Made by a program: the position numbers and the translations under genes. Source: Coriobacteriia bacterium (GTDB lineage Bacteria > Actinomycetota > Coriobacteriia > Coriobacteriales > QAMH01). From it: 64,000 nucleotides of DNA. Every line of letters begins with the position of its first letter. Positions within the stretch are counted from its first letter, which is position 1. Shown piece after piece: positions 20,382 through 40,798 of this stretch. Below the pieces are notes generated by a model, which made no database searches, was not told the DNA's origin, and saw only the letters and a program-made list of their open reading frames with translations. The stretch spans positions 92,603 to 156,602 of the forward strand of contig QAMH01000007.1 of assembly GCA_003149935.1 (NCBI GenBank). The letters are read 5' to 3'.

Positions 20382-20394
20382 CGACTCTTTCCCC

Positions 20395-22150: not shown

Positions 22151-22173
22151 GCATCGAGGGAAGGGGAACCACC

Positions 22174-23136: not shown

Positions 23137-23140
23137 TGAT

Positions 23141-23806: not shown

Positions 23807-23865
23807 GGTGTCTCCTATGTGGTTTGACAGGCGCTTATGAACGCATATGCATATGTTGCGAGGCT

Positions 23866-24276: not shown

Positions 24277-24314
24277 GGTCGGTCCCTTCTCGCGATGTGC
24301 GTTGTGGATAGTAT

Positions 24315-24345
24315 ACGCCTCGGGAAGAAGGGGCCTTACCACTTG
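24315..24345 (-). other. tRNA-Gly-derived fragment (D-arm to anticodon-loop region)
   Basis: Positions 24330-24345 (GGGGCCTTACCACTTG) match the tRNA-Gly at 16506-16580 exactly over 16 nt. The adjacent 15 nt match 10/15, including CTTCCC. Confidence 0.5.
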
Positions 24346-24356
24346 TTATTTCATTA

Positions 24357-24417
24357 TTTTCATGTACATGCTGTACACGAAATTATAAATTTTCATGTAC
24401 AATATGTACACGAAATT
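24357..24417. repeat. Two 28-bp direct repeats in an AT-rich promoter region
   Basis: TTTTCATGTACATGCTGTACACGAAATT (24357-24384) and TTTTCATGTACAATATGTACACGAAATT (24390-24417), with a 33-bp period. Each contains a TGTACA-N-TGTACA dyad. Confidence 0.6.
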
Positions 24418-24463
24418 GAGAATTGGAGCAAACTCGAGCAGACGTGATTCAGGGGCTGATTTT

Positions 24464-25849
24464 ATGGAATATATGCGTCGCAAGCTTGAAACGGACATAG
24501 CGAGCTGGGCCTCTTCTGCCCGTATGCAGCCCCTTCTTATCCAGGGCGCGCGCCGCGTAGGAAAGACGGTGCTCGCAGAGCGCATGGGCGAGGAGTGCTT
24601 CGCCGACGGTTTCGTGAAGCTTGATTTCCAAACGGACCTCTCGAGGGCTCAGGCGATTTTTGATTGGCCAACTGATGACGTGGACGGAATAGTCAGGCGC
24701 GTTTCCGAGTACAAGGGCATGCCCATTCTTCCGGAAAAGACGCTTATCATTCTTGACGAGGTCCAGCTGTGCGAGCAGGCGCTCAATGCCCTCAGGTTTT
24801 TCGAGGGAACACGTTGGCGCATCCTTGCTACAGGGAGCCTGCTCGGAGTAACCACCAAGCGGAGGAGCCTGCCTTTTCCTTCTGGAGTGCGTCAACTCGA
24901 GCTTCATCCACTCGACTTCGAGGAATACCTTTGGGCCTTGGACGAAGGCACCATGGCTTGCGACATACGCGCGCATGCTGAAACGGGCGAACCATACGTT
25001 CGACATGACCAAGCCCTTGACCTGTATCATAAATACCTGGTGCTCGGAGGAATGCCCCGAGTGCTTGATGCCTATCGCCATGAAGGTGGGTTTTCGGCGG
25101 CCGGTGAGGTGCAAGCTGAAATAGATGCCACCTACACGGCGGATATGACTGATCCCGAAAACGGCATAAGCGGCATTTCGGCAAAGCGGATTTGGGACAG
25201 TCTTCCCAAGCAGCTCCTTCGTGCGTCGACGAAAAAGTTCAAGTATTCCGAGGTGATACGCGGAGGGCGCCGAGAGCGCCTCCTAGAGCCCCTTGAATGG
25301 CTTGCTGCAGCTGGCGTGATTTCGATAAATGACTTGACGTGCGACGATCGTGCTCCGCTGGCTCCATACAATGACGAGGACGGGAGCTACTTCAAGGTGT
25401 ATGTGGCCGATACAGGCATCATGTTCCATAAGTTCGGAATCGATCCGGTGGTGTTTCTTGACGACGGGAGGAGGGCGATCCTCGCTTCCGACTTCCGCGG
25501 AGCGCTTGCCGAGAACTACGTCATGCAGGCGTTGCAGGCAAACGGGCTGAAGACGTTTTATTGGATGCCAAACGATAAGGTGGGAAACGGAGAGGTAGAC
25601 TTCGTCTTTCAGAACCGCATGGCGCAGGTCATTCCCGTCGAGGTTAAGTCGTCGCGAAATGTCAAGGCAAAGAGCTTGATGAAGCTTATGAGAGAGGGCA
25701 ACGCGCCCTATGCAGTCAGGCTTTCGGAGGCAAATTTCGGGACAAGCTCTATTGAAGGGGCCGATGGCGAGGTGCTATTGCGCGATCTCCCGTTGTATGC
25801 AGCGTTTTGCGTTGGCTCAGAAGCGGCGGAGGAAACTCGTACGGGATGA
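24464..25849 (+). CDS. AAA+ ATPase (DUF4143-type ATP-binding protein, name from memory)
   Basis: Walker A GARRVGKT and Walker B LIILDEVQ, with a C-terminal domain typical of this family. Start at ATG 24464. Confidence 0.75.
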   Translation: MEYMRRKLETDIASWASSARMQPLLIQGARRVGKTVLAERMGEECFADGFVKLDFQTDLSRAQAIFDWPTDDVDGIVRRVSEYKGMPILPEKTLIILDEVQLCEQALNALRFFEGTRWRILATGSLLGVTTKRRSLPFPSGVRQLELHPLDFEEYLWALDEGTMACDIRAHAETGEPYVRHDQALDLYHKYLVLGGMPRVLDAYRHEGGFSAAGEVQAEIDATYTADMTDPENGISGISAKRIWDSLPKQLLRASTKKFKYSEVIRGGRRERLLEPLEWLAAAGVISINDLTCDDRAPLAPYNDEDGSYFKVYVADTGIMFHKFGIDPVVFLDDGRRAILASDFRGALAENYVMQALQANGLKTFYWMPNDKVGNGEVDFVFQNRMAQVIPVEVKSSRNVKAKSLMKLMREGNAPYAVRLSEANFGTSSIEGADGEVLLRDLPLYAAFCVGSEAAEETRTG

Positions 25850-25897
25850 GGACTGGAAATTTCCGGGTGCCATCGGATGGATGTGGGGGATGAAACG

Positions 25898-25924
25898 CGG
25901 ACGCCGTCTTCCTGACGGCGTCCG
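25898..25924. terminator. Strong hairpin between the ATPase gene end and the tRNA-like 3' end
   Basis: CGGACGCCGTC-TTCCT-GACGGCGTCCG, an 11-bp perfect stem with a 5-nt loop. Confidence 0.6.
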
Positions 25925-25935
25925 ACCTTGTCCTT

Positions 25936-26010
25936 TGGAGCAGGCGACGGGGTTCGAACCCGCGAATACTGGCTTGGGAAGCTCCTGTTCTACCATTGAA
26001 CTACGCCCGC
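25936..26010 (-). tRNA. Hybrid tRNA-Gly(CCC)-like sequence with a disrupted anticodon stem (probable junction product, possibly non-functional)
   Basis: GCGGGCGTAGTTCAATGGTAGAACAGGAGCTTCCCAAGCCAGTATTCGCGGGTTCGAACCCCGTCGCCTGCTCCA. Acceptor, D and T arms fold normally, but the anticodon stem strands GGAGC/GCCAG pair at only 2 of 5 positions. Confidence 0.6.
25972..25982. repeat. 11-nt core shared by both junctions (att-core candidate, left copy)
   Basis: GCTTGGGAAGC on the plus strand (the anticodon loop plus 2 nt on each side). Identical copy at 40945-40955. Confidence 0.65.
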
Positions 26011-26082: not shown

Positions 26083-26565
26083 CTAAGCGGCCTCCCTCAG
26101 GAAGTTCATGTAGCGCGCGCCGATGCCTATTCCGGTATTCGGCACGTACCCGGCGTAGAGGTCAAGCGTGTAGGCGGAGCTGGCGTGCCCCATGAACACC
26201 GACACCGTCTTGATGTTCTCGCCGTTGGCGAGGTTCAACGTCGCGAAGGTGTGTCGGAGGGCGTAGGGGCGTACTCCCTCGAACCCGGCGTCGGCCGCGA
26301 ACCTCAGCCAGTCGCGGTGTCACGATTGGTAGGTTTGGGGGATCATCTCGGGGCCACATACCAGCATGCTCATGGACGGCTTGAAACCGAGTTCCTTCAT
26401 CAGGTTCGACTTGAGCTCTATCCATTGCCTCAGAACCTCTGCCGTGTACTCATCGACGGGAACGCTGCGCTTCGACGCGTCGGATTTGGGGTACTCCCTT
26501 ATCTCCTTGCCGTCGCAGTCTCGCGCCTGGCGCCCCGAGACGCCCCTATCCAAGGAAGTCTGCAT
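26083..26565 (-). pseudogene. Tyrosine recombinase/integrase remnant (C-terminal catalytic half only, with an in-frame TGA)
   Basis: ALRHTFAT... and [17 protein letters not shown] (catalytic Tyr region). In-frame TGA at 26320-26322 (...QTYQS*HRDWLRF...). The frame closes at 26575-26577 and the Crp/Fnr gene end overlaps it, so the N-terminal half is missing. Confidence 0.8.
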
Positions 26566-27322
26566 CGTGGTGACCTAACAACTCCGACATGGTGCTCAGC
26601 TGCCGTTTGAAGCGCGGGGATCGCCTCCACTTCTCAGTCCAGATGAGAATGGAATTGGGTCGTAGTGTTACCATCCCGTCGGCCTCCATCTTCTTGAGCG
26701 CTCGCGACACGTTGGCACGCTCCGCGTGAATGATGGTGCCTACTGTCTCATGGGTCATGGCAAGCTCCAGCGCGCCTTCCTGGTCTCCGTGCATGCGCCA
26801 AAGGCACATGGCGAACAGTCGCTCGATGCGATTGGCGATGCGCGTTCCCTGCAAGATCCACGATTGGCGCACGTAATTGGTGGTGTTGTTGGAAGTTCCC
26901 GCCAACACATCGACAAGCAGCCTTGCATCATGTCTGATGACATCCATATAGGCACGCTCGGGAATGACGCAGACCTCCAGGTCCGTAGCCGCAAAGATGT
27001 AGTCGCCAGCATCGGCGCCAAGGTAGGCCCCGGTTTCACCAATGGTGTCTCCAACCCCCAGCACGCAGCTCACAAGCTTGTCGCCATTTTCCTGGAGAAG
27101 ATACGAAATCGCCAGCCCTCGCATGATGACCATCACGTAATTCGTTACCCCACGCTCGATGATCTGCCCTCGCAAATAGTTCTTTGTGAGCACACCCGTA
27201 ATTACGGGGCCCTCATGCAGTCTGCTGCATATATGCCGGAAATGGCACTTTCTCTGGAGCTTGCAATACGCTGGCTTGCCGCCTGCAGCGCCGTTGTCCC
27301 CCGAATCGCCCTTCGTACCCAT
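26546..27322 (-). CDS. Crp/Fnr-family transcriptional regulator with N-terminal Cys cluster
   Basis: Effector-domain pattern plus C-terminal HTH ([29 protein letters not shown]). N-terminal [13 protein letters not shown]. Divergent from the Mo-enzyme operon. Confidence 0.8.
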
Positions 27323-27403
27323 AGCCCCTCCATCTATTTATGAGCTGCGAAACATTATAATCTCCTGCACTTACTCCAACGCCTGCCAGCCAGCTCAAGC
27401 GAG

Positions 27404-27419
27404 TGTGTTAGGTAACACA
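27404..27419. promoter_or_regulatory. Candidate Crp/Fnr-family operator
   Basis: TGTGTTA-GG-TAACACA is a perfect palindrome (TGTGT-N6-ACACA, CRP-like) in the divergent region 27323-27624. The adjacent ACGTGTCT motif is repeated at 27423 and 27443. Confidence 0.5.
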
Positions 27420-27624
27420 TTCACGTGTCTTTTACCATGTGAACGTGTCTCTAATCACTGAAAAAGTCCCCCGAACCCACTAATCTGGCAGCCATGATCG
27501 ATCATGAAGGTACCACTATCGTGGCTTAGGTTCGCGCGCTTCCTCATGGGTTTCCAGACACCCCATGTCCCTTGCGCGTGTGCAACCCCAAGCCACTTCT
27601 CCAAAGAAGATAGGGGGATTCTAA

Positions 27625-30171
27625 ATGACTGATCAATATGCACCGCTCGAAGGGCAGCTCGAAGAAGTCAAGTGCAAACTCCTTGCCCGCCACGAAGGTG
27701 AGACCATCGAGTTTTCCACCTGCCCCAACAACGGATGCTTTGACATGTGCGTGCTCAAGCAGCATGTCAAGAACGGCAAGGTCGTTTCCATCGAGACCGA
27801 CGATAGCATTCACAAGGGCATGGGACGCGAGGATAAGTACTGTCCTTGGGAGGACATACAGCTGGGCATGTATCAAAAGCGTGCCTGCGTACGCGGCCGC
27901 GGCCAGCGTTCCGACGCCTATTCGCCGACGCGCCTGCTCTATCCCATGAAGCGCAAGGGCCCCAAGCCATCCTGGGACTTCGAGCGCATCAGCTGGGACG
28001 AGGCACTAGACGAAATCGCCAACAAATACATGGAGACCCGCGAGAAGTATGGCCCCTTGAGCGTCTATTCCGATGGCATGCAGGGCCAAACCTGGGATCC
28101 GTTTGGCGAGTACATGGGCGGCGCCATCGCCCTGTGGGGCGAGGACTCCTTCGAGCCCACCAACACCGCCGACATGCTCACCTACAACATCCAGAACACC
28201 CTTTGCTTCGGCATTGACGGCCTGTCCGAAAACCAGACCTTCTTCGACGCCAAGGCAATCATTCTCATCGGCTTCGATGCGGCAATCAACTATCCCGAGA
28301 CGGTCTACTACCTGCTGCTGGCCAAGGAAAAGGGCGTGCCCATCATCACCATCGACCCACGCTACACCTGGACTGCCGAGGCCATCGGCACCCAGCACAT
28401 CTTCATCCGCCCGGGCACCGACCTTGCCCTGCTCGAGGCCATGGCCTATGTGCTCTTCAGCGAGGAGCTCTACGACAAGGAATTCTGCGATCAGTGGGTC
28501 GAGCCTGAGGGCTTCGAGCTCTATCGCGCCTACATCACCGGCATCGCCGATGGCGAGATTCCCAAGACGCCCGAATGGGCCGAGGGCATCACCGGCATTC
28601 CCGCCGAGACTATCTACGATCTCGCCCGCTTCTATGGAGAAGCCAAACCCTGCTACATCCGCATGGTTTGGGCAGCAGCTCGGCAGGTCTACGGCAAACA
28701 GGCGGCTCGTGGCCTCAACTATCTGCAGGCCCTTGGCGGCAACATCGGCCACAACGGCTGCGCAGGCTCCGGTGTCGGCTTCTCCGGCGCCGAGCACATC
28801 ATGACACCCTTTGCCTTCATGCCGCAGTTCATGGGCGAGACCGGGCCCACCACCCCGGCTACCGTCTGTATGGAGGCCGAAATGTGGCATCGCGCCATAC
28901 TCCTTCGCCAGAAGGTCGACGCTGGTGAGATGGACCTCGAGGATTACAAAGCCGAGATCGGCTGCCCCAAGAACACTGAGGCGCCGAACATCCACATGAT
29001 GCTTTGCATCAACTCCAACCGCAATCACCTCTCGGGCTGGTACGGCTGCAACGAACGTCGCGAGGCCATGCTCGCCGTGGATTACATCGCCTTTGCCCAC
29101 TACAATCTCAGGCACCCGAGCATTCCCTATGCCGACATCGTCCTTCCCATTTCGAGTCCGTTCATCGAGGGCGTGAACCAAATCCCCTCCTCGCCTCATA
29201 TGGGAAGCTACACCATCGGCATTAACACGGGCACCCAAAACGCCATGATGTATGGCCGTGGTGGCGGCGACCTTCCTGGCGAGACGCGCCCCATGGGTTG
29301 GATCATCAAGCAGATTGCCGATCGCATGGGTATTGGCGACAAGATCATGCCCGTCATGGAAAGCGTCGGCTGGGAACAATGGGCCGACAAGACCGAAGAA
29401 GTCGCCCATGACGTGTACGACTTCTGGAAGAACATACCCGCGCCCGACGGCCAGATGATGCCCGACGTTCCCGAATGGGAGGAGTTCAGGAAGTATCCCA
29501 TCTACCGCCGCCCTATGGATAGCGGCTATCATGTCTTTGCCCGCGCCCAGATAGAAGGCGGTGCGCCCTTCCCGACCCAGTCCGGCAAGATCGAGTTCTA
29601 TAGCAAGTGGGTTGCGGAAAACGACCTTACTGTCGCACCCTATCCCGATGCGGGCCAGAAGTGCTTTGGCAAGGGCAATCTGCCGCCCATGGCCAAGTAC
29701 AAGCACACCCCTGAGGGCATGATGTCGCCAAAGACCTTGGACTATCCGCTCTACATGGTCACGCCGCATTCCTTCTATCGCCACCACTGCGCCTACGACC
29801 ACAGCCTCTGGTACCGCGACGAATTCCGCAACTCCGTGTGGATGAGCGTCTCGGACGCCAAGGCCCGTGGCATTAAGGATGGCGATAAGGTGCATGTGCA
29901 CTCCACCGTGGGCGAATGTCTTCTCACTGCCTATGTCACGAGCCGCATGACCCCCGGCGTCTGCTGCATCATCTTTGGCCGCTGGTACGAGCCGAGCGGC
30001 ATCAAGACCGAGCTCATGCCCGGCGGCATCGATACGCGCGGCGACTGTAACTTCCTCATCCCGTCAGACTTCTACGATGACGTGCTCGGCGCTGACCTCA
30101 ATAACGCGCTCGTTCAAATCGAGCTGGCAGAAGACTACCTCAAGCTCGACAAGCTCATGGAGGTGAAGTAA
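27625..30171 (+). CDS. DmsA-like molybdopterin (bis-MGD) oxidoreductase catalytic subunit, cytoplasmic type (848 aa)
   Basis: N-terminal Cys group CPNNGCFDMC...ACVRG, MopB core and a DmsA-like C-terminus (...GIKDGDKVHVHSTVGECLLTAYVTSRMTPGV...). No twin-arginine motif. Confidence 0.9.
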   Translation: MTDQYAPLEGQLEEVKCKLLARHEGETIEFSTCPNNGCFDMCVLKQHVKNGKVVSIETDDSIHKGMGREDKYCPWEDIQLGMYQKRACVRGRGQRSDAYSPTRLLYPMKRKGPKPSWDFERISWDEALDEIANKYMETREKYGPLSVYSDGMQGQTWDPFGEYMGGAIALWGEDSFEPTNTADMLTYNIQNTLCFGIDGLSENQTFFDAKAIILIGFDAAINYPETVYYLLLAKEKGVPIITIDPRYTWTAEAIGTQHIFIRPGTDLALLEAMAYVLFSEELYDKEFCDQWVEPEGFELYRAYITGIADGEIPKTPEWAEGITGIPAETIYDLARFYGEAKPCYIRMVWAAARQVYGKQAARGLNYLQALGGNIGHNGCAGSGVGFSGAEHIMTPFAFMPQFMGETGPTTPATVCMEAEMWHRAILLRQKVDAGEMDLEDYKAEIGCPKNTEAPNIHMMLCINSNRNHLSGWYGCNERREAMLAVDYIAFAHYNLRHPSIPYADIVLPISSPFIEGVNQIPSSPHMGSYTIGINTGTQNAMMYGRGGGDLPGETRPMGWIIKQIADRMGIGDKIMPVMESVGWEQWADKTEEVAHDVYDFWKNIPAPDGQMMPDVPEWEEFRKYPIYRRPMDSGYHVFARAQIEGGAPFPTQSGKIEFYSKWVAENDLTVAPYPDAGQKCFGKGNLPPMAKYKHTPEGMMSPKTLDYPLYMVTPHSFYRHHCAYDHSLWYRDEFRNSVWMSVSDAKARGIKDGDKVHVHSTVGECLLTAYVTSRMTPGVCCIIFGRWYEPSGIKTELMPGGIDTRGDCNFLIPSDFYDDVLGADLNNALVQIELAEDYLKLDKLMEVK

Positions 30172-30173
30172 CC

Positions 30174-30932
30174 ATGACCCAGTACGCATTCTTCTTTGAC
30201 CAGAGCCGTTGCACAAATTGCCATGCCTGCGCCGTGGCCTGCAAGGACTGGAACTATGGAGAGGAAATCGAGTCCACCAACGTTAAATGGCTGCGCATGA
30301 TGCAGTGGGAAAAGGGCGTCTATCCGGAAGTCGAGATGCACACGCTCATGGCCACCTGCTACCACTGTGAAAAGCCCATTTGCGTGGATTCCTGTCCCAA
30401 CCATGCGCTCTTCAAGGAAGACGAGTTCGGCGCCGTCCTGCTCGATTCCGACAAGTGCAAGGGCACCCGTCAATGCTGGGTTGCCTGCCCTTATGGCGCT
30501 CCCCAATACGAGGATAACGCCCCTGGCACGCCCATGAGCAAGTGCACGATGTGTTATGACAGGCTCGTGGAGGGCGAACTGCCCATCTGCGTGGCCGCAT
30601 GCCCCCAGCGCGCGCTCGACTTTGGCCCCATCGAGGAGATGCGGGAGCGCTATGGCGATCTCGCGGCCCTCGAGGACATGCCCTCACCCGACACAGTGCA
30701 GCCCGCCGTCGTTTTCAAGCCGAGGACGACCAAGCAAAAGCACGTGAAGTATGACCCGTCCAAAGTTCTTGACATCATGGGGATCCGCGCCGACACGGGC
30801 TTCCCTGACATCTACGAAAAGCACGAGGATGTCACGCAGGTTTGGGATGGCCTCGTTGGCTATGACAAGCTCGTCATGAAAGCGGCAAGTGTGGAGGAGA
30901 CGCTTGCCCGCTCAAAGAACGAAGACGGCTGA
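30174..30932 (+). CDS. DmsB-like 4Fe-4S cluster subunit (252 aa)
   Basis: CTNCHACAVACK, CYHCEKPICVDSCP, CKGTRQCWVACP and CTMCYDR...CVAACP motifs. Starts 3 nt after the catalytic subunit stop. Confidence 0.9.
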   Translation: MTQYAFFFDQSRCTNCHACAVACKDWNYGEEIESTNVKWLRMMQWEKGVYPEVEMHTLMATCYHCEKPICVDSCPNHALFKEDEFGAVLLDSDKCKGTRQCWVACPYGAPQYEDNAPGTPMSKCTMCYDRLVEGELPICVAACPQRALDFGPIEEMRERYGDLAALEDMPSPDTVQPAVVFKPRTTKQKHVKYDPSKVLDIMGIRADTGFPDIYEKHEDVTQVWDGLVGYDKLVMKAASVEETLARSKNEDG

Positions 30933-31080
30933 TACCCCTTTTCCGTGGATGGGCCGGCCTCTAGCAGCCCCCGCTGTCGGCCCATTCGCTTCTCTCATGC
31001 TACCAAGGGCGTGGCGTGCATCACGCGAAGCGTGACACCAAGATGCGTCCTTGACCCCCAACTCCAAGGAGGGAATCATT

Positions 31081-31527
31081 ATGGCTATTCACTCTGGGCA
31101 TACGTCCATTTGCGTATCCGACATGGGCCGCGCGCTCGATTTCTACTGCGGCGTCTTGGGCCTGAAGATGTCAAAGGATTACGGAACCACGCCTGCCGAT
31201 GGCCTAACGCGCGTTTCGGGTTCCACCATGACTTTCAACTTGCTTGAAGACTCCGAGGGAAACCAATGCGTCGAGCTCTTCCAGTTCGAAAACATCCGCC
31301 AGCGCAAGTTCGATGGCACCTCGCGTCATGAGGACTTCTGGTCGAGCCATGTCTGCTTCCTCTTCGATCCGGAAAGCATCGATGAGGTCTACCAGCGCAT
31401 CGTGGATTCGGGGGCGGGTATCGACATACCCCTTTCCGACATGGACGGCGGCAAGTTCGCCTATGTCTATGACCCTGACGGTTACATGGTTGAGCTCGTC
31501 ACCTGGTATAACGGCCGCGCGGAATAG
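31081..31527 (+). CDS. VOC/glyoxalase-fold protein
   Basis: GHTSICVSDMGRALDFYCGVLGLK... and ...YVYDPDGYMVEL. Start at ATG 31081 behind an AAGGAGGG RBS. Confidence 0.8.
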   Translation: MAIHSGHTSICVSDMGRALDFYCGVLGLKMSKDYGTTPADGLTRVSGSTMTFNLLEDSEGNQCVELFQFENIRQRKFDGTSRHEDFWSSHVCFLFDPESIDEVYQRIVDSGAGIDIPLSDMDGGKFAYVYDPDGYMVELVTWYNGRAE

Positions 31528-31616
31528 GCCCGCTTCGGGCGAACATCGTCTCCTGACATCGCTCGTGTTTGTACAGGCCGAGCTTTGCTCGGCTCGCCTT
31601 CAGAAAGGATACAGCA

Positions 31617-32360
31617 ATGTCTTATGCAATCGTTACCGGCGCAAGCCGTGGCCTTGGCGCCGGAATGGCAAAGAAACTGGCCCAAATGGGCTACGATGTC
31701 GTCGTTAACTACACCTCCGAGTCAAGCGCCGAGAAGGCCCAAACCGTCGCAGATGATATTATCGGCGTCTACAATAAGAAGGCTCTTGTGGTCAAGGCCG
31801 ACATGTCTACCCTCGAAGGCTGCGAGCAGTTGGTTTATGAGTCGCGCGAGCATTTCGGCGACGACATTGCAGTGCTTATCAACAATGCCGGCATCTCCCA
31901 GACTCAGGATTTCCTTGACACCTCGCTCGAGCGCATTAAGTTCATTGTCGACACCAACCTCATGAGCGTGCTCTACATGAGCCGCCTAGTCTATCCCCTC
32001 ATGGTGGATAAGGGCAAAGGTTGCGTCATCGACATCGCCTCCACCGGCGGCATCAACGGCTGCCAGGGACAAATCGTTTACACGGCCACCAAGGCGGGCA
32101 TCATCGGCCTGGTCAAGGGCTTCACGGCCGAGTTCGCGCATTTGGGCATACGCACTAACGCCATCGCCCCCGGCCTCACCGAAACCGACATTATCCGTGG
32201 CCTGGGCGAAGAGGCCATCGAGTACTGCAAGAACACCAACCCCATGCGCGACAACGGCACCGTTGATGATATCGTCGATGCCATGGAATACCTGGTGAAG
32301 ACGCGCTTCGTGTGCGGTCAGACCATCGTTGTCGATGGCGGCGGATCGGTGGTTGCCTGA
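31617..32360 (+). CDS. Short-chain dehydrogenase/reductase (SDR)
   Basis: VTGASRGLGAGMA and YTATKAGI (YxxxK). Start at ATG 31617. Confidence 0.9.
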   Translation: MSYAIVTGASRGLGAGMAKKLAQMGYDVVVNYTSESSAEKAQTVADDIIGVYNKKALVVKADMSTLEGCEQLVYESREHFGDDIAVLINNAGISQTQDFLDTSLERIKFIVDTNLMSVLYMSRLVYPLMVDKGKGCVIDIASTGGINGCQGQIVYTATKAGIIGLVKGFTAEFAHLGIRTNAIAPGLTETDIIRGLGEEAIEYCKNTNPMRDNGTVDDIVDAMEYLVKTRFVCGQTIVVDGGGSVVA

Positions 32361-33655
32361 TGGATACGACCGTCGATGCAAAGGCGAGGCAGTCAAAGTC
32401 ACGCGCCAACAAGGTTCTCATTGGCTGCATACTGCTCATTGCCGTCGAATATGGCACGCTCAACATACTGTCGCTCTACATTGAGCCCATCTGCACGACA
32501 CTGGGGGTGGACGCGACGGCCGTCTCGTTCATGTTCACAATCACGAACATCGTGAGCGTTGCTTCGGGTTTCCTCGTCGCCCTGCTCATCGAGAAGGTGA
32601 ACCCGCGCCTCATCATGTTTACGGGCGTCATCTGCTTCATGCTCTTCTTCGGCATCCTCTACGTGGCCACGAGCATCGTCATGATCTACGTGGGCGCCGT
32701 ATTCTATGGCGTGAGCCAGGTGTTCGTTGGTTTTGCCGTGACCCAGCCGCTCATTAGCTGGTGGCATGCCAAAAACGTCGGCATGAAGATGAGCTCCCTC
32801 TCTCTTGCCATGTCCGTGGGCGCGCTCATCATGGCGCCTACCATCGGTAGCGCGCTTCCCGCCTTGGGCATGCCGGGAACGGTGCTTGTCAACGGCGGCG
32901 TCCTGGGCGTGCTCATGCTCATCGCCGTAGCCTTTCTCATCTCGGGCAAACCCGAGACCTATGGCCTCAAGCCATACGGCTACGAGGAGGCCCAAGAAGA
33001 GGTCGCCCAAGAGGAGCTCGCCGGGGAAGCATCGGTTGCAAGCGGCCTCACCTTCAAGCAGTGCCTCAAGACCTATCCCTTCTGGGCCATACTCTTTGTG
33101 CCCTTCCTGCTCTACATCCCGGGCAATGGCTTCGTCACTAACGAGGCCGTGATTTTTCAGTCCTGCGGCTTCGATTCTGGCGGAGTGAGCATGCTCATGT
33201 CCGTCTATAGCGGGTGCATGATCGTCTGGGTGCTTCTCTACGGATTCTTGAGCGACCATATCGGGCCAGCCAAGGCAAGCATCATCTATGCCATCGGCGG
33301 TATCGTATGCCTGCTGGGATTCGTCATCCTCGGCGGTCAGGCTGGAGCCATCTTCCTAGCCGTCACTATCGGCATCATCAACTCCTTCAGCGGCATGATT
33401 GCGGCCATCATGTTCGGCAAGCTCTTTGGTACCCGCGCTGTTGGAACGCTCATAGCTGTCGGCAATATCGTGGGTGGCGTGGCTGCGGCAGTCGCCCCTC
33501 CCATTGCGAGCTTCATCAACGCGGCGACGGGCAGCTTTACGGCATTTATGGTGCTTTCTGCCGTTATAGTTGTCGTGGTGCTTTTCTTGCTCGTTACGGC
33601 GACGTCCAAGAGGCAAGTAGCCAGGATTCAGGCGCTTGAGGCCTCAGGGGAGTAA
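32360..33655 (+). CDS. MFS transporter
   Basis: About 12 hydrophobic helices with a central loop. ATGA start/stop overlap with the SDR gene. Confidence 0.85.
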   Translation: MDTTVDAKARQSKSRANKVLIGCILLIAVEYGTLNILSLYIEPICTTLGVDATAVSFMFTITNIVSVASGFLVALLIEKVNPRLIMFTGVICFMLFFGILYVATSIVMIYVGAVFYGVSQVFVGFAVTQPLISWWHAKNVGMKMSSLSLAMSVGALIMAPTIGSALPALGMPGTVLVNGGVLGVLMLIAVAFLISGKPETYGLKPYGYEEAQEEVAQEELAGEASVASGLTFKQCLKTYPFWAILFVPFLLYIPGNGFVTNEAVIFQSCGFDSGGVSMLMSVYSGCMIVWVLLYGFLSDHIGPAKASIIYAIGGIVCLLGFVILGGQAGAIFLAVTIGIINSFSGMIAAIMFGKLFGTRAVGTLIAVGNIVGGVAAAVAPPIASFINAATGSFTAFMVLSAVIVVVVLFLLVTATSKRQVARIQALEASGE

Positions 33656-33751
33656 GGGCAGGGGTTCCGGGCAACGGATGTCTGCGGCATTGCTCGTCTC
33701 GTGCTGGAGCCGAGCATTGCTCGGCCCGCCGCAACCAAGTTACGAAAGGCC

Positions 33752-34249
33752 ATGGTCATGACCATTGATGAAACGGACAAGGAGGCATCCGCCTACGCCC
33801 TCGAGTTGTTCGCCCAGCACCCCGAGCCCACAGGTCGGCTGCTATTCGTCTTGAACGGGCTTCAGGAGCGCTTTCGCTACCTTCCCGCCAGCGCCTGCGA
33901 GGTTATTGCCAGCGAGCTCGGGCTCGAAGACTCCGACGTTCGCGCCTTCGCCAGCGCCTTTCGCAACTACTCGCTCGATCCCGTGGGCCGCGTCGTAGTG
34001 GAGGTATGCGATGGCGCGGCCTGCCATGCCGCCGGTGCCGAAAAGCTCATCGCCAAATTGGAGGGCCAGCTTGGCATCAAGTGCGGCACCACAAGCGATG
34101 ATGGCCTCTTCACACTGCGCACGGTGCGCTGTGTGGGATCATGCTCGGCGGCTCCCATCACAGTCATAGAAGGCGACGTCCGCGGTCACATGCGCATCTC
34201 CCAGATGGGCGACCTAATCTCGCAGATTAAGGGGCTTGCCAATGAATAG
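33752..34249 (+). CDS. NuoE/HydC-like thioredoxin-fold [2Fe-2S] protein
   Basis: VCDGAACHAAG...VRCVGSCSAAP Cys pattern typical of the 24-kDa subunit family. Start at ATG 33752. Confidence 0.8.
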   Translation: MVMTIDETDKEASAYALELFAQHPEPTGRLLFVLNGLQERFRYLPASACEVIASELGLEDSDVRAFASAFRNYSLDPVGRVVVEVCDGAACHAAGAEKLIAKLEGQLGIKCGTTSDDGLFTLRTVRCVGSCSAAPITVIEGDVRGHMRISQMGDLISQIKGLANE

Positions 34250-36101
34250 TGAAGCACTCGAGAGCTTGCGTCGGTGCGGTAAGGCCCAGCTGGGCACGTA
34301 CCCCCGCATAACGGTGGGCCTCGGCACCTGCGGTAACGCTGCCGGAGCCCAGAAGGTCTACGACGCTTTCCAGGAGACCCTTGCCGGCGCTATAGCCGAA
34401 GGCCGCGTGCGCTTGGACGGCGTCGGCTGCCGAGGCGCCTGCTGGGCCGAGCCTCTCGTTGAGGTGCAGATGGGAGACGGGCGCAGCTATGTCTTTGCCA
34501 ACGTGACCGAGGGCCGCGCCCCCATCATCGCCAAGCAGGTTCTGGCAGGCAAGCTCAACGCCCGCCGCTGCATCGGTTACTACCAGTGCGGCGCAGATTC
34601 CGAAGATGTTTCCTCTCCCTTGCTTGCACAGGTTGAGGACCTCGCATCGGGCCAGAGTCGTTACTTGATGGGCCCTTGCGGCTACCTTGACCCGCTCTCC
34701 TTGGAGCAATATGCCGCGATCGGAGGATTGCGCGCCCTTCAGGCGACGCTATCTAAAGGCGGTGCCGAAGAGGTTCTTCTCAAGCTGGGAGAGGCGGGCC
34801 TGCGTGGGCGCGGAGGCGCAGGCTTTCCCACGGCTCAGAAGTGGCGTGCCGCGGCAGACTCCGACGACCCCGTGCGCTATGTCATCGTCAACGGCGACGA
34901 AGGCGATCCTGGAGCCTATATGGACCGCACACTCATGGAATCGGCCCCTTACCAGGTGCTTGAGGGTGCGCTTCTCGCTGCCGTAGGCATTGGCGCCCAC
35001 GAGGTCATCGTTTTCGTGCGAAGCGAGTACAAGCAGGCCTGCACGACCCTCGAGCGCGCCGTCCAGGTGCTGCGCGAGAACGGGGTCATCGGGCCAAACG
35101 CTCTTGGCAGCGGCTACGGGCTCGACGTCTTTGTCGAGAAAAGCGCCGGATCTTTTGTGTGCGGGGAGGAGACGGCGCTCATCGCTGCGTTTGAAGGTCG
35201 CATACCTCGACCCTCGAAAAAGCCGCCCTATCCCGCGGAGCGTGGCCTGTTCGGGCATCCCACAGTCATCGACAACGTCGAGACTCTCGCCAACGCACCC
35301 CTCATCGTTGCCGGCGGCGTTGGGTCCTTTCGCAGCCATGGCACGGTCCTGTGCCCGGGTACCAAGACCATCTGCCTCACCGGTGCCGTCAATCGAACGG
35401 GCGTGGTCGAAGTTGACATGGGCACGCCGCTGTCCCACGTGGTCTGCGAGCTTGGTGGTGTCGACGAGGCCAGCGTCAAGGCGGTGCAGCTCGGAGGTCC
35501 TTCCGGGGCTTTCATCGCCCAAGGCGAACTCGGCATGCCCCTCGACTTCGAGAGCATCGCCCAGGAGGGTACCATCATGGGCTCTGGAGGCGCGCTTGTC
35601 ATCGGGCAGGGCGATTGCGTCGTTGACCTCACCCGCTACCTCATGGAGTTTTGCGCCGAGGAGTCCTGCGGACGTTGCAAGCCTTGCGCCGGTGGGACAA
35701 GGGAGTGCGCTCGCATTTTGGAGCGCCTGTGTGACGGCCAGGGGCATCCGGAGGATCTGGATGGGCTTGAGGATTTGGGGAACGCAATGATGCGCGGCTC
35801 TCTTTGCGGTTTGGGCAAGTCCGCCTCAGGACCGTTGCTCAGCGCGATCGCGCAATTTCGCCCTGAGTTCGAGGCCCATATTGAGGGTACGTGCCCCAGC
35901 GCCGTATGCCGCAGCCTGGTGCAGCTCGTCATCGTGCCCGAAAAGTGCCAAGGCGAGCGCTGCTGCCTGGGGACCTGCCCCGGAAACGCCGTCAAAGGCA
36001 AGTTCGGCAAGCCTGGCACCATCGACCCGCGCCTGTGCGAGAAGTGCTTCACTTGCATCGACGCCTGCCCCTACGACGCCATAAAGGTGCTTCCCAGCTG
36101 A
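34242..36101 (+). CDS. NuoF/HydB-like NAD(H)- and FMN-binding Fe-S flavoprotein with C-terminal 2x[4Fe-4S] domain
   Basis: GRGGAGFPTAQKW, FVCGEETALIAAFEG and ESCGRCKPCAGGTRE motifs. N-terminal thioredoxin-like extension and C-terminal CxxCxxCxxxCP-type ferredoxin domain. Start overlaps the upstream stop. Confidence 0.85.
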   Translation: MNSEALESLRRCGKAQLGTYPRITVGLGTCGNAAGAQKVYDAFQETLAGAIAEGRVRLDGVGCRGACWAEPLVEVQMGDGRSYVFANVTEGRAPIIAKQVLAGKLNARRCIGYYQCGADSEDVSSPLLAQVEDLASGQSRYLMGPCGYLDPLSLEQYAAIGGLRALQATLSKGGAEEVLLKLGEAGLRGRGGAGFPTAQKWRAAADSDDPVRYVIVNGDEGDPGAYMDRTLMESAPYQVLEGALLAAVGIGAHEVIVFVRSEYKQACTTLERAVQVLRENGVIGPNALGSGYGLDVFVEKSAGSFVCGEETALIAAFEGRIPRPSKKPPYPAERGLFGHPTVIDNVETLANAPLIVAGGVGSFRSHGTVLCPGTKTICLTGAVNRTGVVEVDMGTPLSHVVCELGGVDEASVKAVQLGGPSGAFIAQGELGMPLDFESIAQEGTIMGSGGALVIGQGDCVVDLTRYLMEFCAEESCGRCKPCAGGTRECARILERLCDGQGHPEDLDGLEDLGNAMMRGSLCGLGKSASGPLLSAIAQFRPEFEAHIEGTCPSAVCRSLVQLVIVPEKCQGERCCLGTCPGNAVKGKFGKPGTIDPRLCEKCFTCIDACPYDAIKVLPS

Positions 36102-36330
36102 ATGTGTCAAGTTGTGTCAAGTCACCGTATGGCGGGCTCAGGCGAGCATTGGCAATCGTCACCTTATGGCTAAATCGTCCGCACCCCCATAGCTATAGTT
36201 CTGACATGGCAAAAATCGACATCACGCGCGAAGCTTGACTAGCGCGAAGGCAGTCGGCTGATGGCTGCATTATCACGCTTTTGGTTCTCGTTATATGGCG
36301 CAACAATACCAATTATGGTATGGTTCTGCC

Positions 36331-36864
36331 ATGAGCTATTACGACGACATATACGAGATTGCCGTAGATAACCACGGGTACGTCTCCACGGAAACGGCCT
36401 CAAGGGTCGGGGTCCCGGCTGTAGAGCTCGCGAAGCTGGCTCACAGGGGAAGGCTGGAGAACATCTCTCGGGGGCTCTACCGCCTTACCCGGTTCGTCCC
36501 TACCGAGAACGGCTCTTATGCGGAAGCTGTGGCGAGACTTGGAGGCGACGCGTACCTATTCGGCGAGTCCGTCATAGCCATGCTCGGACTCGCTCCGACA
36601 AACCCGAGCTACATCTGCGTGGCGACCCCCCATCGCACTAGGCGCAAGCTTCCAGCCTATATAAGGGTGAAGAAGCCAGGGAAAGGCGACACGGTCACCT
36701 CATATGACGGAATCCCGAGCCAGGATGTCGCGACGGCCGTTCGAAGCGCAAAGGCGACGATGATGGACGAGCGACTGCGAGATGCCGTGGAGGAGGCGAG
36801 ATGCCAGGGGTATCTCAGGCGCGATGATTACGAGAGCCTCAAGAAAGACATGGGATGGGAATGA
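36331..36864 (+). CDS. abiEi: AbiEi-type antitoxin/transcriptional regulator (type IV TA)
   Basis: N-terminal wHTH (...GYVSTETASRVGVPAVELAKLAHRGRLENISRGLYRL...) and position directly upstream of an AbiEii-type nucleotidyltransferase. Confidence 0.75.
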   Translation: MSYYDDIYEIAVDNHGYVSTETASRVGVPAVELAKLAHRGRLENISRGLYRLTRFVPTENGSYAEAVARLGGDAYLFGESVIAMLGLAPTNPSYICVATPHRTRRKLPAYIRVKKPGKGDTVTSYDGIPSQDVATAVRSAKATMMDERLRDAVEEARCQGYLRRDDYESLKKDMGWE

Positions 36865-36893
36865 AGTGACCAAACAGTCAGCGCAACCTCGAC

Positions 36894-37639
36894 ATGGCGA
36901 TCCGCCGCCTCGGCGCAGGTGAGAAAGCCTTCCTTTCGAACCGGAGCATCATCGCAAACGCGATCGTCGGACAGCTGATGGCCGGAGCCGTGGTGAAAGG
37001 CGGCTCGTCCCTGAAGATACGCTTCGGGAACGCGGCAACGAGAGCGACCACCGACTTCGATGCCGCGAGGTCTGTCGGCGAATACGAGTTCGAGGAAGGG
37101 TTCGCGAAAGTTTGGCAACAGGATGGGAGGGCTTCACGGGCCGACTTGTCGAGCTGCCGAAGGCGCATCCGGAAGGCGTCCCAGAGCCGTACGTCATGCA
37201 GCCCTACGCAGTCAAGCTGAGCTATCTGGGAAGACCGTGGTGCACCGTCGACCTGGAGCTGGGCTACAACGAGCTCGGAGATGCCGACCACGCCGATATG
37301 GTGGTTCCCGCCGATGCGAACGAACTGCTTGCCGCGATGGGGCTTCCGGAGTTCGGACCGATTCCGCTCATGGCCCTTCATTACCAGATTGCCCAGAAGC
37401 TCCATGGCGCATCGGAGCCGGGAAGCCAAAGGGCTCATGACTTGGTCGACCTTCAGATCATGGTCGAAAACGGCGAAATAGAACTTCGCGCGACAAGAAA
37501 TACGTGCATCCGCCTGTTTTCATATCGGCGCATGCAAGCGTGGCCTCCTGAGTTCCATCTTTTTGCGAAGAAGGGCAGGGGCGTGATGATGCATGGCGGC
37601 AAAGACGATTGGCTCTGCAGGAAAGCTTTGAGAATATAG
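36894..37639 (+). pseudogene. abiEii: AbiEii-type nucleotidyltransferase toxin, frameshifted
   Basis: KGGSSLKIRFG...TTDFDAA NTase motif. ORF pieces 36894-37220 and 37112-37639 join (..EEGFAK|SLATGWEGF..) if one A is added to the AAA run at 37107-37109. Confidence 0.7.
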
Positions 37640-37727: not shown

Positions 37728-38993
37728 TCAGGCGCATCCCCTTTCGAACTGCATGAAAGCCGGACGAACCGCTTCATTGCGCATGTGCTCCAGCTCCGAT
37801 GCGTTGGCGGAGAGCACCTCGCACATCTTCACGTAGCGCCCGTAGCGCTCCTCGCATGCGGCCCAGTAGCGCTGGCAGGAGGCGTCCTCGGCGCATCTCT
37901 CCAGCACCTCGAACTCGGGCGGGCGACTGCCGTCCATGTAGAGCTGCGACCTGATGACGCTGCGCCTCGTCTGCACCTTGCGCCAGAGCTTCGCGAAGCC
38001 GGGGTCGACCTGGGCGAGGCCGGGCATGTCCAGGGGCTCCCCGTCGGCCCCCAGGATGTCGGGCGCTATGGGCTCGTCGGCCCAGGCGGCCAGCCCGTCG
38101 TCGCATTCGAGCCAGCGCGGAAGGTTCTTCGCGAGGCGGTTGTCGTCGCCGTTCCTGATCCAGTAGTCCTTGGCGTAGGCCGCATACGCGTCGATGATCT
38201 GCTCCGGCTCGAAGCCCGATGCCACCCTGGCCTTCCAGACCTTCAGGCAGTCCCGCTTGAACTTGAGCGACGTGAGCGGCTTGAGCGACAGGGCGCACAG
38301 CCGCTCGAACGGCTCCGGGAACTCGCCCTTCCGGTACTCCCTGAAATCCCCTGCGCCCTTCTCCCCCGGCCTGTCGGCTGGCTCCGAGTCGCAAGAGAGG
38401 GGTTCTTTTAGTTCTTTATCGCCTTTGGGCGATTTATCGGATGAGTAATTTATAGGTGCCGGTTTCCCAGATGTGGGTTTTCCAGATACGGGTTTTCCCG
38501 TTCTGGTTCTGAGTTGGGACGACTTGCCGGTTTCGTCCGTTTCGCAGGTTTCGCCCTCGCGTTCCTCGGCTTTCGCAGAGTCGTTATCGTGAGGGGCTTC
38601 CGGTGACGTTTGGGAATGCTCGAACTCCGACAGCACGGCGAACCCGTCAGCCTTCAGCTCCGCGCACACGTCATCGTGCATCGCCGGGTCGTCGAGGGTT
38701 ACCCAGGTGGCCTCCTCGGCCTTCAGGAAGCGGCCGTTCTCGCTGCGCTTGCGGGCGCGGATGATGTAGCCCGCCGCCTCGAGCTCCTTGATGCCGGCGG
38801 TCACCGCGTCCGCGCCGTCGCGCACGAGCGAGGCGAACCCCTTGATGGTGAACACCCACTCGGGGTTGCCCTCAAGCGAGCGTATCTGGCAGTAGATGCC
38901 CTTGGCCTTCGCCGAGAGGCCGTGGTCGAAGAAGATGGTGTTCTCGACGTGCGTGAAGGAGCCCTTGCCCCTGTGCATAACGTTGCCCATCAC
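37728..38993 (-). CDS. Plasmid/phage-type wHTH protein, putative replication initiator
   Basis: N-terminal wHTH-like region (FTHVENTIFFDHGLSAKAKGIYCQIRSL...AGIKELEAAGYI), a low-complexity linker (GKPVSGKPTSGKPAP), and a start overlapping the parB stop. Confidence 0.55.
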   Translation of the reverse strand: MMGNVMHRGKGSFTHVENTIFFDHGLSAKAKGIYCQIRSLEGNPEWVFTIKGFASLVRDGADAVTAGIKELEAAGYIIRARKRSENGRFLKAEEATWVTLDDPAMHDDVCAELKADGFAVLSEFEHSQTSPEAPHDNDSAKAEEREGETCETDETGKSSQLRTRTGKPVSGKPTSGKPAPINYSSDKSPKGDKELKEPLSCDSEPADRPGEKGAGDFREYRKGEFPEPFERLCALSLKPLTSLKFKRDCLKVWKARVASGFEPEQIIDAYAAYAKDYWIRNGDDNRLAKNLPRWLECDDGLAAWADEPIAPDILGADGEPLDMPGLAQVDPGFAKLWRKVQTRRSVIRSQLYMDGSRPPEFEVLERCAEDASCQRYWAACEERYGRYVKMCEVLSANASELEHMRNEAVRPAFMQFERGCA

Positions 38994-40712: not shown

Positions 40713-40788
40713 GTTCCATGCACCTCCTTCTGCGGTTGCCCGCATCTGGAGGTCAGACGGTTCTCGCACGATGTGCGAAAGGCGTGCG

Positions 40789-40798
40789 TTTCGCGAAA
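40789..40798. promoter_or_regulatory. Candidate parS/operator palindrome upstream of parA
   Basis: TTTCGCGAAA is a perfect palindrome. Half-sites TTTCGCG recur at 40910-40916 and 40919-40925. Confidence 0.3.

Follow-up and report, generated by a model that had tools for sequence, protein, structure and literature searches.

A DmsAB-like molybdoenzyme in conserved genetic linkage with a BfuC/BfuB-type flavoprotein core in gut Coriobacteriia

Introduction

This study concerns a stretch of 64,000 nucleotides (nt) from a Coriobacteriia bacterium (assembly GCA_003149935.1, contig QAMH01000007.1, positions 92,603 to 156,602; hereafter the window), in which genes for a DmsAB-like molybdenum (Mo) enzyme are clustered with genes for a NuoE/NuoF-like pair that resembles the BfuC/BfuB core of the Bfu family of flavin-containing enzymes. 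The association of the Mo subunit and its iron-sulfur (Fe-S) partner with BfuC and BfuB is a conserved genetic unit and not a chance pairing, and these four genes are the only ones that form its conserved core. We estimate a probability of about one half that the core locus encodes a soluble four-subunit oxidoreductase, here termed Mo-Bfu, which would belong to the BfuA-less type 4 of the family and would work in the reductive direction.

With tens of Mo enzymes, gut Coriobacteriia transform drugs, hormones and dietary polyphenols. No physiological electron donor for the cytoplasmic Mo enzymes of this class is named in the literature passages covered here. The nearest described system is the Bfu family, which includes HydABC, NfnABC, StnABC, Fdh-Bfu and WOR-Bfu as well as type 4 enzymes such as the predicted Rub-Bfu (PMC9304861), and which was defined by its BfuBC core (Schut et al., 2022; PMC9304861). 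A later structural study assigns bifurcation to the flavin mononucleotide (FMN), B1 and C1, with C1, B3 and B4 leading to ferredoxin (PMC12018979). Type 4 (clade 57) comprises 47 members, which are devoid of BfuA and for which the third substrate is mostly unidentified (PMC9304861).

Conserved linkage of the molybdoenzyme and BfuCB

Eighty genome loci with homologs of the Mo subunit were collected and scored by tblastn with all eight proteins of the window locus, and the contigs of metagenomic homologs were inspected in addition. The proposal of the initial annotation, that a molybdoenzyme is genetically wired to a NuoE/NuoF-type module, is borne out by at least 12 distinct loci, in which a Mo subunit 44–75% identical to that of the window is encoded with BfuC and BfuB adjacent and the gene order shuffled. 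In addition to the window with L001–L004, these include L005 (Adlercreutzia sp. ZJ473; Mo subunit 52% identical), L006 (51%), L009 (45%), L085 (75%, divergently transcribed), L086 and L089 (69% and 58%, two Mo/Fe-S pairs behind one BfuCB), L088 (57%), L090 (Adlercreutzia sp. ZJ242; 49%), L091 (49%, with a TorD-like chaperone and a small Fer2_4/Fer4 protein) and L092 (45%, with a BfuC-BfuB fusion of 841 aa). At L087 (60%), the contig ends soon after the Mo, Fe-S, SDR and VOC genes. BfuCB was found at none of approximately 55 loci with 30–38% identical Mo homologs, which are distributed over Eggerthellaceae, Desulfitobacterium-like Firmicutes, Chloroflexota, Syntrophales, archaea and Bacillaceae.

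The linkage also holds when approached from the flavoprotein, as seen with three of the top-ranked BfuB homologs that carry the private CQGERCC motif (see below), which were picked regardless of Mo content. L094 encodes two Mo/Fe-S pairs, a VOC protein and BfuCB, L095 encodes a Mo subunit, an Fe-S subunit, a chaperone and BfuCB, and L093 encodes an FNR-like regulator and BfuCB, with an orthologous VOC gene at the contig end. Wherever their context is known, BfuBs of the CQGERCC type sit in Mo/Fe-S clusters, and the question of whether these NuoE/NuoF-like genes pair with other partners in related genomes is thus answered in the negative. Since the linkage is conserved with shuffled order, includes a gene fusion and is accompanied by a co-varying BfuB signature, the four genes can be regarded as one functional unit. 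The eight-gene arrangement as such does not recur, as only the Mo, Fe-S, BfuC and BfuB genes are kept across loci.

Several variations on the core were observed. Two paralogous Mo/Fe-S pairs accompany a single BfuCB in L086 (6362–13376), L089 (10001–17020) and L094 (2121–13285), where two catalytic modules may share one flavoprotein core. BfuC-BfuB fusions of 783–841 aa are found in some members (L092, 393–2918; P0130 and P0131), and in L091 only, a 217-aa Fer2_4/Fer4 protein that resembles the BfuA N-terminus is encoded after BfuB.

The BfuC/BfuB core

The NuoE-like [2Fe-2S] subunit (BfuC/HydC type, 165 aa) is encoded at 33752–34249 and the NuoF-like FMN/NAD(H) subunit (BfuB/HydB type, 619 aa) at 34242–36101, both on the plus strand, with the start of the second gene overlapping the preceding stop, as initially annotated, by 8 nt (ATGAATAG). 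BfuC matches PF01257 with 125 bits and has the C1 [2Fe-2S] site, and its top eight matches in the PDB are without exception C subunits from the bifurcating Bfu family (HydC, NfnC and StnA). BfuB matches PF01512, PF10531 and PF10589, with weak Fer4 matches, and carries the features that characterize a Bfu flavoprotein, namely the FMN/NAD(H) domain, the SLBB domain, the B1 domain, the His/Cys site and a C-terminal double-ferredoxin domain (2x[4Fe-4S], B3/B4), together with an N-terminal 2Fe-2S-type extension.

Comparison with solved structures places the flavoprotein in the bifurcating HydB/BfuB group. It aligns over its whole length with B subunits of characterized Bfu structures, led by NfnB (9n5u_B, 501 bits) and followed by 9bov_B, HydB 7p5h_B, StnB 8oh5_B, NiFe-HydB 7t2r_B, HydB 8a6t_B and 7q4v_B, so that the nearest structures all come from bifurcating enzymes (437–501 bits). 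FdsB, which does not bifurcate, reaches 322 bits, and NuoF of complex I ~295 bits. Cys459, 476, 479, 482, 522, 551, 556, 569, 575, 579, 599, 602, 605 and 609 align with cluster cysteines of NfnB; the sole mismatch is C550 of NfnB, which aligns with E572 of BfuB, and Cys574 lies two residues downstream. The conserved His of the B2/Zn site, which is absent from non-bifurcating homologs (PMC9304861), is present, with the BfuB segment AHIEGTCPSAVC aligning with AHIEGRCPAKVC of NfnB.

The first C-terminal ferredoxin motif of BfuB reads CQGERCC...CP (residues 569–579). The corresponding pattern K-C-Q-G-E-R-C-C-L-x-T-C-P is shared by 21 of the best 120 BfuB homologs, which are the top-ranked ones, whereas generic BfuBs have C-x2-C-x2-C-x3-C-P. 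In the CQGERCC BfuBs the canonical second Cys is replaced by Glu and an extra Cys follows two residues on, which may alter the ferredoxin-facing B3/B4 cluster. The C-terminal domain as a whole is conserved across the Mo-linked subfamily. A related BfuB group has C-x-G-C-x-C-C in place of CQGERCC.

The predicted proteins of the window that were scanned against Pfam include no NuoG/BfuA-like (NuoG/HydA-N-like) subunit, as is present in Bfu types 1–3, and no NrfD/DmsC-type membrane anchor, the latter in agreement with the initial annotation. By gene content, the absence of BfuA would correspond to the BfuA-less type 4. The text of the Bfu classification (PMC9304861) contains neither "molybd" nor "DMSO" as a string, and the literature passages covered describe no Mo partner of Bfu enzymes besides formate dehydrogenase.

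The catalytic subunit

The Mo-bis-pyranopterin guanine dinucleotide (Mo-bisPGD) subunit (27625–30171, plus strand, 848 aa) contains the PF00384 (E = 4e-22) and PF01568 (E = 1e-19) domains of the dimethyl sulfoxide (DMSO) reductase superfamily. Its best NCBIfam match is dmsA_ynfE (TIGR02166), at 364 bits against a cut-off of 777.7, and the DmsA, YnfE and YnfF exception models reach 251–264 bits against cut-offs of 1600–1675, while the formate dehydrogenase models score 157 against 666 (TIGR01591) and 76 against 814 (TIGR01553). The N-terminus has neither an RR motif nor a hydrophobic stretch, and the RR motif is also missing in 118 of the 120 best homologs, which fits the earlier description of a DmsA-like protein without a twin-arginine signal.

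A profile of the Mo subunit (A1), built from 21 family members, aligns with TorA and DorA over almost the full length (296 bits), with lower scores for pyrogallol hydroxytransferase (250), PhsA (209), FdhH (169) and acetylene hydratase (158, 20th). Ser175 (in WGEDSFEP) is invariant and aligns with the Mo-ligand serine of DorA (Ser189 of the precursor, Ser147 of the mature protein). Cys33, Cys38, Cys42 and Cys88 are likewise all invariant in the profile, hence an FS0 cluster would be expected. An AlphaFold2 model (mean predicted local distance difference test, pLDDT, 81; predicted template-modeling score, pTM, 0.83) resembles DorA, MtsZ and TorA most closely (template-modeling (TM) scores 0.69–0.72; DorA, 0.72), followed by pyrogallol transhydroxylase and then PcrA, with formate dehydrogenases at rank 20 or lower and acetylene hydratase at rank 39. 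The initial impression of a DmsA-like rather than a formate-dehydrogenase-like enzyme is thus corroborated by the ligand position, the model scores, the profile and the fold. Formate dehydrogenase can be ruled out as the identity of the 848-aa subunit, because Ser occupies the ligand position and the formate dehydrogenase models score low. Within the superfamily, the enzyme is predicted to stand on the DmsA/DorA side, as a Ser-ligated, redox-competent and cytoplasmic member, and it has no characterized close relative.

The iron-sulfur subunit

The Fe-S subunit (30174–30932, plus strand, 252 aa), whose gene is separated from the Mo gene by 2 nt, was assigned to the DmsB-like proteins by Pfam and NCBIfam matches and by alignment of its Cys groups. 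The DmsB-like assignment agrees with the first description, but the four Cys groups are not all complete: groups I, II and IV are canonical, whereas group III has three Cys only (C95-x5-C101-x3-C105-P) and is missing the second one. This position is T, S, A or D in every Bfu-linked Fe-S homolog. The second Cys is also missing in the non-linked L010 and L024 and in the first Fe-S gene of L094, and group III is canonical (CxxCxxCxxxCP) in the non-linked L057 (Gordonibacter sp. 28C) and L036. NarH and the DmsB-C102 variants provide a model for a [3Fe-4S] cluster, and by analogy with these the distal cluster of the Fe-S subunit is probably [3Fe-4S], since the second Cys of group III is absent. The C-terminal tail of the subunit, ...LVMKAASVEENLARSKNEDG, is unusually conserved (alignment A3).

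Operon organization, accessory genes and regulator

The gene inventory of the window is based on a listing of open reading frames (ORFs) with Pfam and NCBIfam scans. All eight genes of the initial annotation are present where it had placed them, and the gene starts match independent gene calls on four other contigs with an identical Mo protein; the plus-strand run, however, consists of seven genes, and eight are reached only when the divergent regulator is counted. Promoter and terminator scans gave background levels, so that the lack of terminator-like sites in the three longer intergenic gaps of the operon proves nothing.

Between the Fe-S and BfuC genes, the operon encodes three accessory proteins on the plus strand. 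The VOC protein, a glyoxalase-I-type metalloprotein of 148 aa (31081–31527; the ORF opens at 31051), keeps the invariant glyoxalase-I metal tetrad H7/E65/H90/E138, which suggests a proton-transfer isomerase or epimerase. Orthologs with 44–62% identity are encoded in L005, L006, L085, L090 and L093, and an unrelated VOC subtype (Glyoxalase_4) in L086, L087, L089, L091 and L094. The short-chain dehydrogenase/reductase (SDR), a classical, FabG-like protein of 247 aa (31617–32360), is followed by a transporter of the major facilitator superfamily (MFS) with 431 aa (32360–33655), and their junction is TGATG with a 1-nt overlap rather than the ATGA reported initially. The nearest models of the MFS protein are organic-anion carriers (for lactate, bile salts, galactonate and oxalate/formate), and its own substrate is therefore probably an organic anion. 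The VOC and SDR proteins have only generic matches among solved structures and NCBIfam models (glyoxalase I, ChaP and FabG) and therefore give no clue to the substrate.

The divergent gene (26546–27322, minus strand, 258 aa) encodes a Crp/Fnr-family regulator with HTH_Crp_2 and cNMP_binding domains and, as noted at the outset, an N-terminal Cys cluster. The cluster, C20-x5-C26-x5-C32, and C118 are invariant in seven regulators adjoining related operons. In Escherichia coli FNR the cysteines are C20, C23, C29 and C122, and the 3+1 Cys pattern of the regulator is, as judged from the alignment, that of an FNR-type [4Fe-4S] sensor. Its probable operator, TGTGTTAGGTAACACA (27404–27419), is an inverted repeat, but not the perfect palindrome first described: two perfect 7-bp arms flank a central GG (TGTGTTA-GG-TAACACA). 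TGTGT-N6-ACACA occurs once in the window against an expectation of 0.04, and exact boxes of this form lie 170–220 bp upstream of Mo or Bfu operons in L085, L087 and L088. The conserved box is CRP-like in spacing and does not match the FNR box TTGAT-N4-ATCAA. At other related loci the regulators are of the LysR, sigma-54, PucR-like or GerE types.

Proposed mechanism and alternative explanations

In the proposed Mo-Bfu enzyme, the Ser-ligated Mo-bisPGD alpha subunit with its FS0 [4Fe-4S] cluster would form the catalytic end, from which the electron path would lead through the DmsB-like beta subunit as a "wire", with a distal cluster that is probably [3Fe-4S], to the BfuC/BfuB core with its FMN, NAD(H) site and ferredoxin-facing C-terminal clusters. 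Since no BfuA/NuoG-like subunit is encoded, it would be the beta subunit, in place of BfuA, that connects to B1. NAD(H) would bind at the FMN of BfuB and ferredoxin at the C-terminal clusters. The reaction would most likely be the cytoplasmic removal of an oxygen atom or a hydroxyl group from an imported small organic anion, in an oxo-transfer resembling that of S-/N-oxide reductases; reductive oxo-transfer or dehydroxylation is favored by Ser as the ligand and by the resemblance to DorA, MtsZ and TorA. NADH would be the electron source, and ferredoxin a second partner, either as co-donor or, with a high-potential acceptor, as co-acceptor; in the latter case, reduced ferredoxin would become available to the cell with no membrane involved. 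The VOC protein would probably isomerize or epimerize the substrate or product, the SDR and the MFS transporter of the window copy would add a redox tailoring step and uptake, and the FNR-like [4Fe-4S] regulator probably controls expression via TGTGT-N6-ACACA.

A number of points weigh against this scheme. The case for a physical alpha/beta/BfuB/BfuC complex comes from gene adjacency, and L007 (Mo subunit 44% identical) has no BfuCB within 10 kb. The "sygw" segment of DorA and TorA (the Tyr114/Trp116 loop) is an insertion relative to the Mo-subunit profile with no counterpart in the family, and given this and the score below the DmsA/YnfE cut-off, S-/N-oxide chemistry is to be taken as the nearest analogy only. 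The bundling with an importer and two tailoring enzymes, as initially envisaged, stands for the VOC protein, which recurs in its two unrelated subtypes, but not for the others: SDRs are frequent in related loci, yet only ~30% identical to that of the window, and the MFS gene is present only in the window copy of the module. Known third substrates of Bfu enzymes are of mid potential (H2, formate, NADPH), a high-potential oxo-transfer acceptor needs no confurcation, and we know of no demonstration of bifurcation from NADH by a Bfu core. In addition, the non-canonical first ferredoxin motif of BfuB could mean that the ferredoxin path is altered. The Bfu core nonetheless suggests ferredoxin coupling; that the locus represents a new class of flavin-based bifurcating enzymes, with a BfuA-less BfuBC core joined directly to a DmsAB-type molybdoenzyme and with ferredoxin reduction driven by the very exergonic transfer of electrons from NADH to an organic oxo or hydroxy acceptor, is a tentative proposal that we consider less likely than not.

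The best surviving alternative, although we consider it rather unlikely, is a plain NADH-dependent soluble reductase without bifurcation, in which the flavoprotein pair would do no more than pass electrons from NADH to the Mo enzyme, like FdsBG in NAD-linked formate dehydrogenase, and the extra BfuB clusters would be vestigial or structural. NAD-linked Mo enzymes with NuoEF-type modules do exist, and FdsB (6vw7_B, 6tg9_B) is among the structure matches. Throughout the Mo-linked BfuB subfamily, the first C-terminal ferredoxin motif is without its canonical second Cys, and given the established redox potentials, NADH alone would easily reduce an S-/N-oxide-like acceptor. However, the bit scores given above place the bifurcating enzymes well ahead of FdsB, the C-terminal domain is maintained in the subfamily, and non-bifurcating homologs lack the B2–B5 sites (PMC9304861), whereas here every ligand is retained or relocated.

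An enzyme working in the oxidative direction appears improbable. It would oxidize or hydroxylate a low-potential substrate and split the electrons to NAD+ and ferredoxin, as in Fdh-Bfu and WOR-Bfu, and all characterized Bfu enzymes do draw mid- or low-potential electrons from their third substrate (PMC9304861). Ser in place of a Cys or SeCys ligand and the low TIGR01591 score do not fit this, the nearest relatives of the Mo subunit are reductases, and the neighboring genes suggest no obvious low-potential substrate. Ethylbenzene catabolism offers a known example of a Mo hydroxylase that acts ahead of an SDR alcohol dehydrogenase, but the couples of C-H hydroxylation are too positive for NAD+ reduction.

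There is little to recommend an ordinary Gordonibacter-type catechol dehydroxylase (Mo, 4Fe-4S and MFS genes) with BfuCB merely nearby, although Coriobacteriia are rich in cytoplasmic two-subunit dehydroxylases with an adjacent MFS gene (PMC7028382, PMC12771579, PMC11887054) and the host is rich in reductases, with four Mo-enzyme genes in the window. The published catechol dehydroxylases of Eggerthella and Gordonibacter have acetylene hydratase as their closest relative (PMC7028382), and the comparison was made by this published criterion rather than with Dadh, Dodh and related sequences themselves. With acetylene hydratase at only the 20th rank by profile and the 39th by fold, as opposed to TorA and DorA at the top, the 848-aa subunit falls outside the catechol dehydroxylase clade, whereas a 721-aa Mo enzyme encoded elsewhere in the window (12970–15135) has acetylene hydratase as its best match (273 bits) and thus served as a positive control; it is only 26% identical to the 848-aa protein. 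The BfuCB linkage across loci likewise speaks against mere proximity. Among the loci kept, the only one from Gordonibacter is L057, 36% identical in the Mo subunit, and none of the 80 is from E. lenta. The corticoid 21-dehydroxylase of E. lenta and Gordonibacter was also considered and dropped, as the paper on the enzyme names no Mo cluster.

A non-redox transhydroxylase of the pyrogallol-phloroglucinol type, with the SDR as a phloroglucinol-type reductase such as follows in gallate degradation, is very hard to credit, as the high rank of the cytoplasmic, Ser-ligated alpha-beta pyrogallol hydroxytransferase (250 bits by profile; TMq 0.72) is set against a conserved NAD(H)/ferredoxin module that would be superfluous for a net non-redox enzyme, FS0 cysteines that are invariant in the family, an SDR that is not conserved across related loci and the absence of ring-cleavage genes downstream.

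The mobile island and its surroundings

The operon is the cargo of a tRNA-Gly island of ~15 kb that is part of a tandem array and whose own integrase has decayed, in keeping with the carriage on a mobile element proposed initially; this follows from the tRNA-derived flanking repeats and from the occurrence of the same cargo in different left neighborhoods. The tRNA-Gly(CCC) gene at 16506–16580 (minus strand, ARAGORN) is the probable primary integration site of the tandem islands to its right. On the left, the island is delimited by an att-like junction, a degenerate tRNA-Gly-like sequence (25935–26010) that aligns with the tRNA-Gly gene and gives no ARAGORN call. The probable right end is a direct repeat of the tRNA 5' half and flank at 40943–41002 (61 nt, 92% identity to the tRNA 5' half), as found by self-BLAST and alignment. 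Next to the left junction lies the C-terminal part of a tyrosine recombinase (26086–26565, minus strand), which overlaps the 3' end of the regulator gene; its frame (...ALRHTFAT...) is broken by an in-frame stop after QTYQS and the N-terminal part is missing. An 81-aa ORF of this fragment is called in L001–L004, with an additional 36-aa ORF in L001, L002 and L004, and the island has no intact integrase.

Downstream of BfuB, the island encodes an AbiEi/AbiEii type IV toxin-antitoxin pair (36295–37639, plus strand) and a maintenance module of a 421-aa HTH_36 protein, ParB and ParA (37728–40811, minus strand). AbiEii (36894–37639) is split into two overlapping ORFs of 108 and 175 aa in the window and L003, and is intact (261 aa) in L001, L002 and L004. 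In a plasmid search the HTH_36 protein had only weak, partial matches, and the element is therefore not assignable to a known plasmid or integrative and conjugative element family. A 31-nt near-perfect palindrome lies inside parB (39451–39481).

Homology of L001 and L004 to the window extends from 25933–25936 to 37549 at 99% identity, and that of L002 starts at 26050; the maintenance genes are 86–88% identical between island copies, compared with 99% for the operon. The left neighborhoods differ among L001, L002, L004 and the window with L003, and in L001 the operon element immediately borders the segment that lies next to the true tRNA-Gly gene in the window. The G+C content is slightly lower across 24–34 kb of the window. 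In L002, similar modules (~400-aa protein, ParB and ParA) lie in the same orientation on both sides of the operon (5193–8113 and 20231–22547), and related islands thus appear to stack in tandem at its site.

The ~9.3-kb block between the tRNA-Gly gene and the operon island (16600–25930) duplicates other window sequence in parts: two DUF1847 genes (15784–16419 and 23174–23809) share 86% nt identity and two PNPOx-like genes (19216–19676 and 23866–24323) share 84%. The PNPOx and AAA_14 genes (23866–25849) are absent from L001, where the DUF1847/tRNA-flank segment abuts the operon island. An inverted repeat with 35-nt arms of 97% identity (60726–60834) lies near the end of an ABC-transporter gene.

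The window encodes three further Mo enzymes. At 11596–15647, the 721-aa enzyme, which is predicted to be catechol-dehydroxylase-like because its best PDB match is acetylene hydratase, and its 169-aa Fe-S partner are immediately preceded by a 448-aa flavoprotein of the pyridine-nucleotide-disulphide family; this trio is also found in L001, followed by MerR and MFS genes. This flavoprotein might provide a cytoplasmic Mo enzyme with a further connection to NAD(P)H. At 48706–55972, a 648-aa flavoenzyme (OYE-type and Pyr_redox_2), an MFS transporter and a duplicated-MarR regulator accompany an 822-aa Mo enzyme, which is only ~25% identical to the 848-aa enzyme over its N-terminal third and has no recognizable Fe-S partner, the next ORF (139 aa) being without a Pfam match. 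A truncated Mo-enzyme gene lies at 2–1183.

Relation to known systems and implications

Both modules of the locus are already known, and formate dehydrogenases provide examples of Mo-bisPGD enzymes combined with NuoEF or Bfu modules; what is new is the DmsAB-type partner that is not a formate dehydrogenase, the BfuA-less wiring, the dedicated BfuB subfamily and the occurrence in gut Coriobacteriia. No description of the Mo/Fe-S-BfuCB arrangement, or of the eight-gene arrangement, which had not been recognized as a described system at the outset either, was found in the searchable full text, which covers only a minor part of the subscription journals. With the Bfu family, the locus shares the BfuB domain architecture and cluster sites, a BfuC with the C1 [2Fe-2S] site and adjacent, overlapping BfuC and BfuB genes, and with type 4 also the absence of a BfuA gene. 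It differs in its predicted Ser-ligated DmsAB-like Mo partner, which is unnamed in the classification passages (PMC9304861), and in the private CQGERCC motif in place of CxxCxxC.

Similar comparisons apply to the Mo enzymes. DorA, TorA, MtsZ and DmsAB(C) provide the best sequence and fold matches and the position of the Ser ligand, and DmsAB(C) in addition the DmsB-type partner with four Cys groups and the FS0-type Cys motif of DmsA. In contrast to the reductases of DMSO, trimethylamine N-oxide (TMAO) and methionine sulfoxide, the enzyme has no Tat signal, DmsC anchor or Tyr114/Trp116 loop and remains below the DmsA/YnfE cut-off, and its electrons are predicted to come from NAD(H)/ferredoxin, as opposed to quinol or a cytochrome. 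FdsABG and Fdh-Bfu likewise couple a Mo/W-bisPGD enzyme to a NuoE/NuoF-type flavoprotein module, but with a Cys/SeCys ligand and a NuoG-like bridge instead of Ser and a DmsB-like bridge. The Gordonibacter-type dehydroxylases (Dodh, Cldh, Gp Hcdh, Eadh1/2) resemble the locus in host class, cytoplasmic Mo/Fe-S pair, adjacent MFS gene and dedicated regulator, and the passages covered name no electron donor for them, whereas the enzyme described here is DorA-like rather than acetylene-hydratase-like, has a beta subunit of 252 aa compared with ~170 aa and an FNR-type instead of a LuxR-type regulator, and is linked to BfuCB. Pyrogallol-phloroglucinol transhydroxylase (4v4c), a cytoplasmic, Ser-ligated alpha-beta bisPGD enzyme, ranks second among enzyme types, but is less similar than DorA/TorA, carries out no net redox reaction and has no NAD(H) module.

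The module is present in the cultured Adlercreutzia strains ZJ473 and ZJ242, and an expression host for Mo enzymes of Coriobacteriia exists (PMC11887054), hence the questions of electron donor and bifurcation are directly testable. The locus offers a concrete and conserved candidate electron donor for cytoplasmic Mo enzymes, namely an NAD(H)/ferredoxin Bfu core, and provides the BfuA-less type 4 Bfu enzymes with a catalytic partner; it would extend electron bifurcation to Mo oxo-transfer chemistry beyond formate. If the proposed scheme is correct, gut Coriobacteriia would possess a soluble, membrane-independent and energy-conserving "terminal reductase", which might serve as a possible model for the electron supply to the other cytoplasmic Mo reductases of this class.

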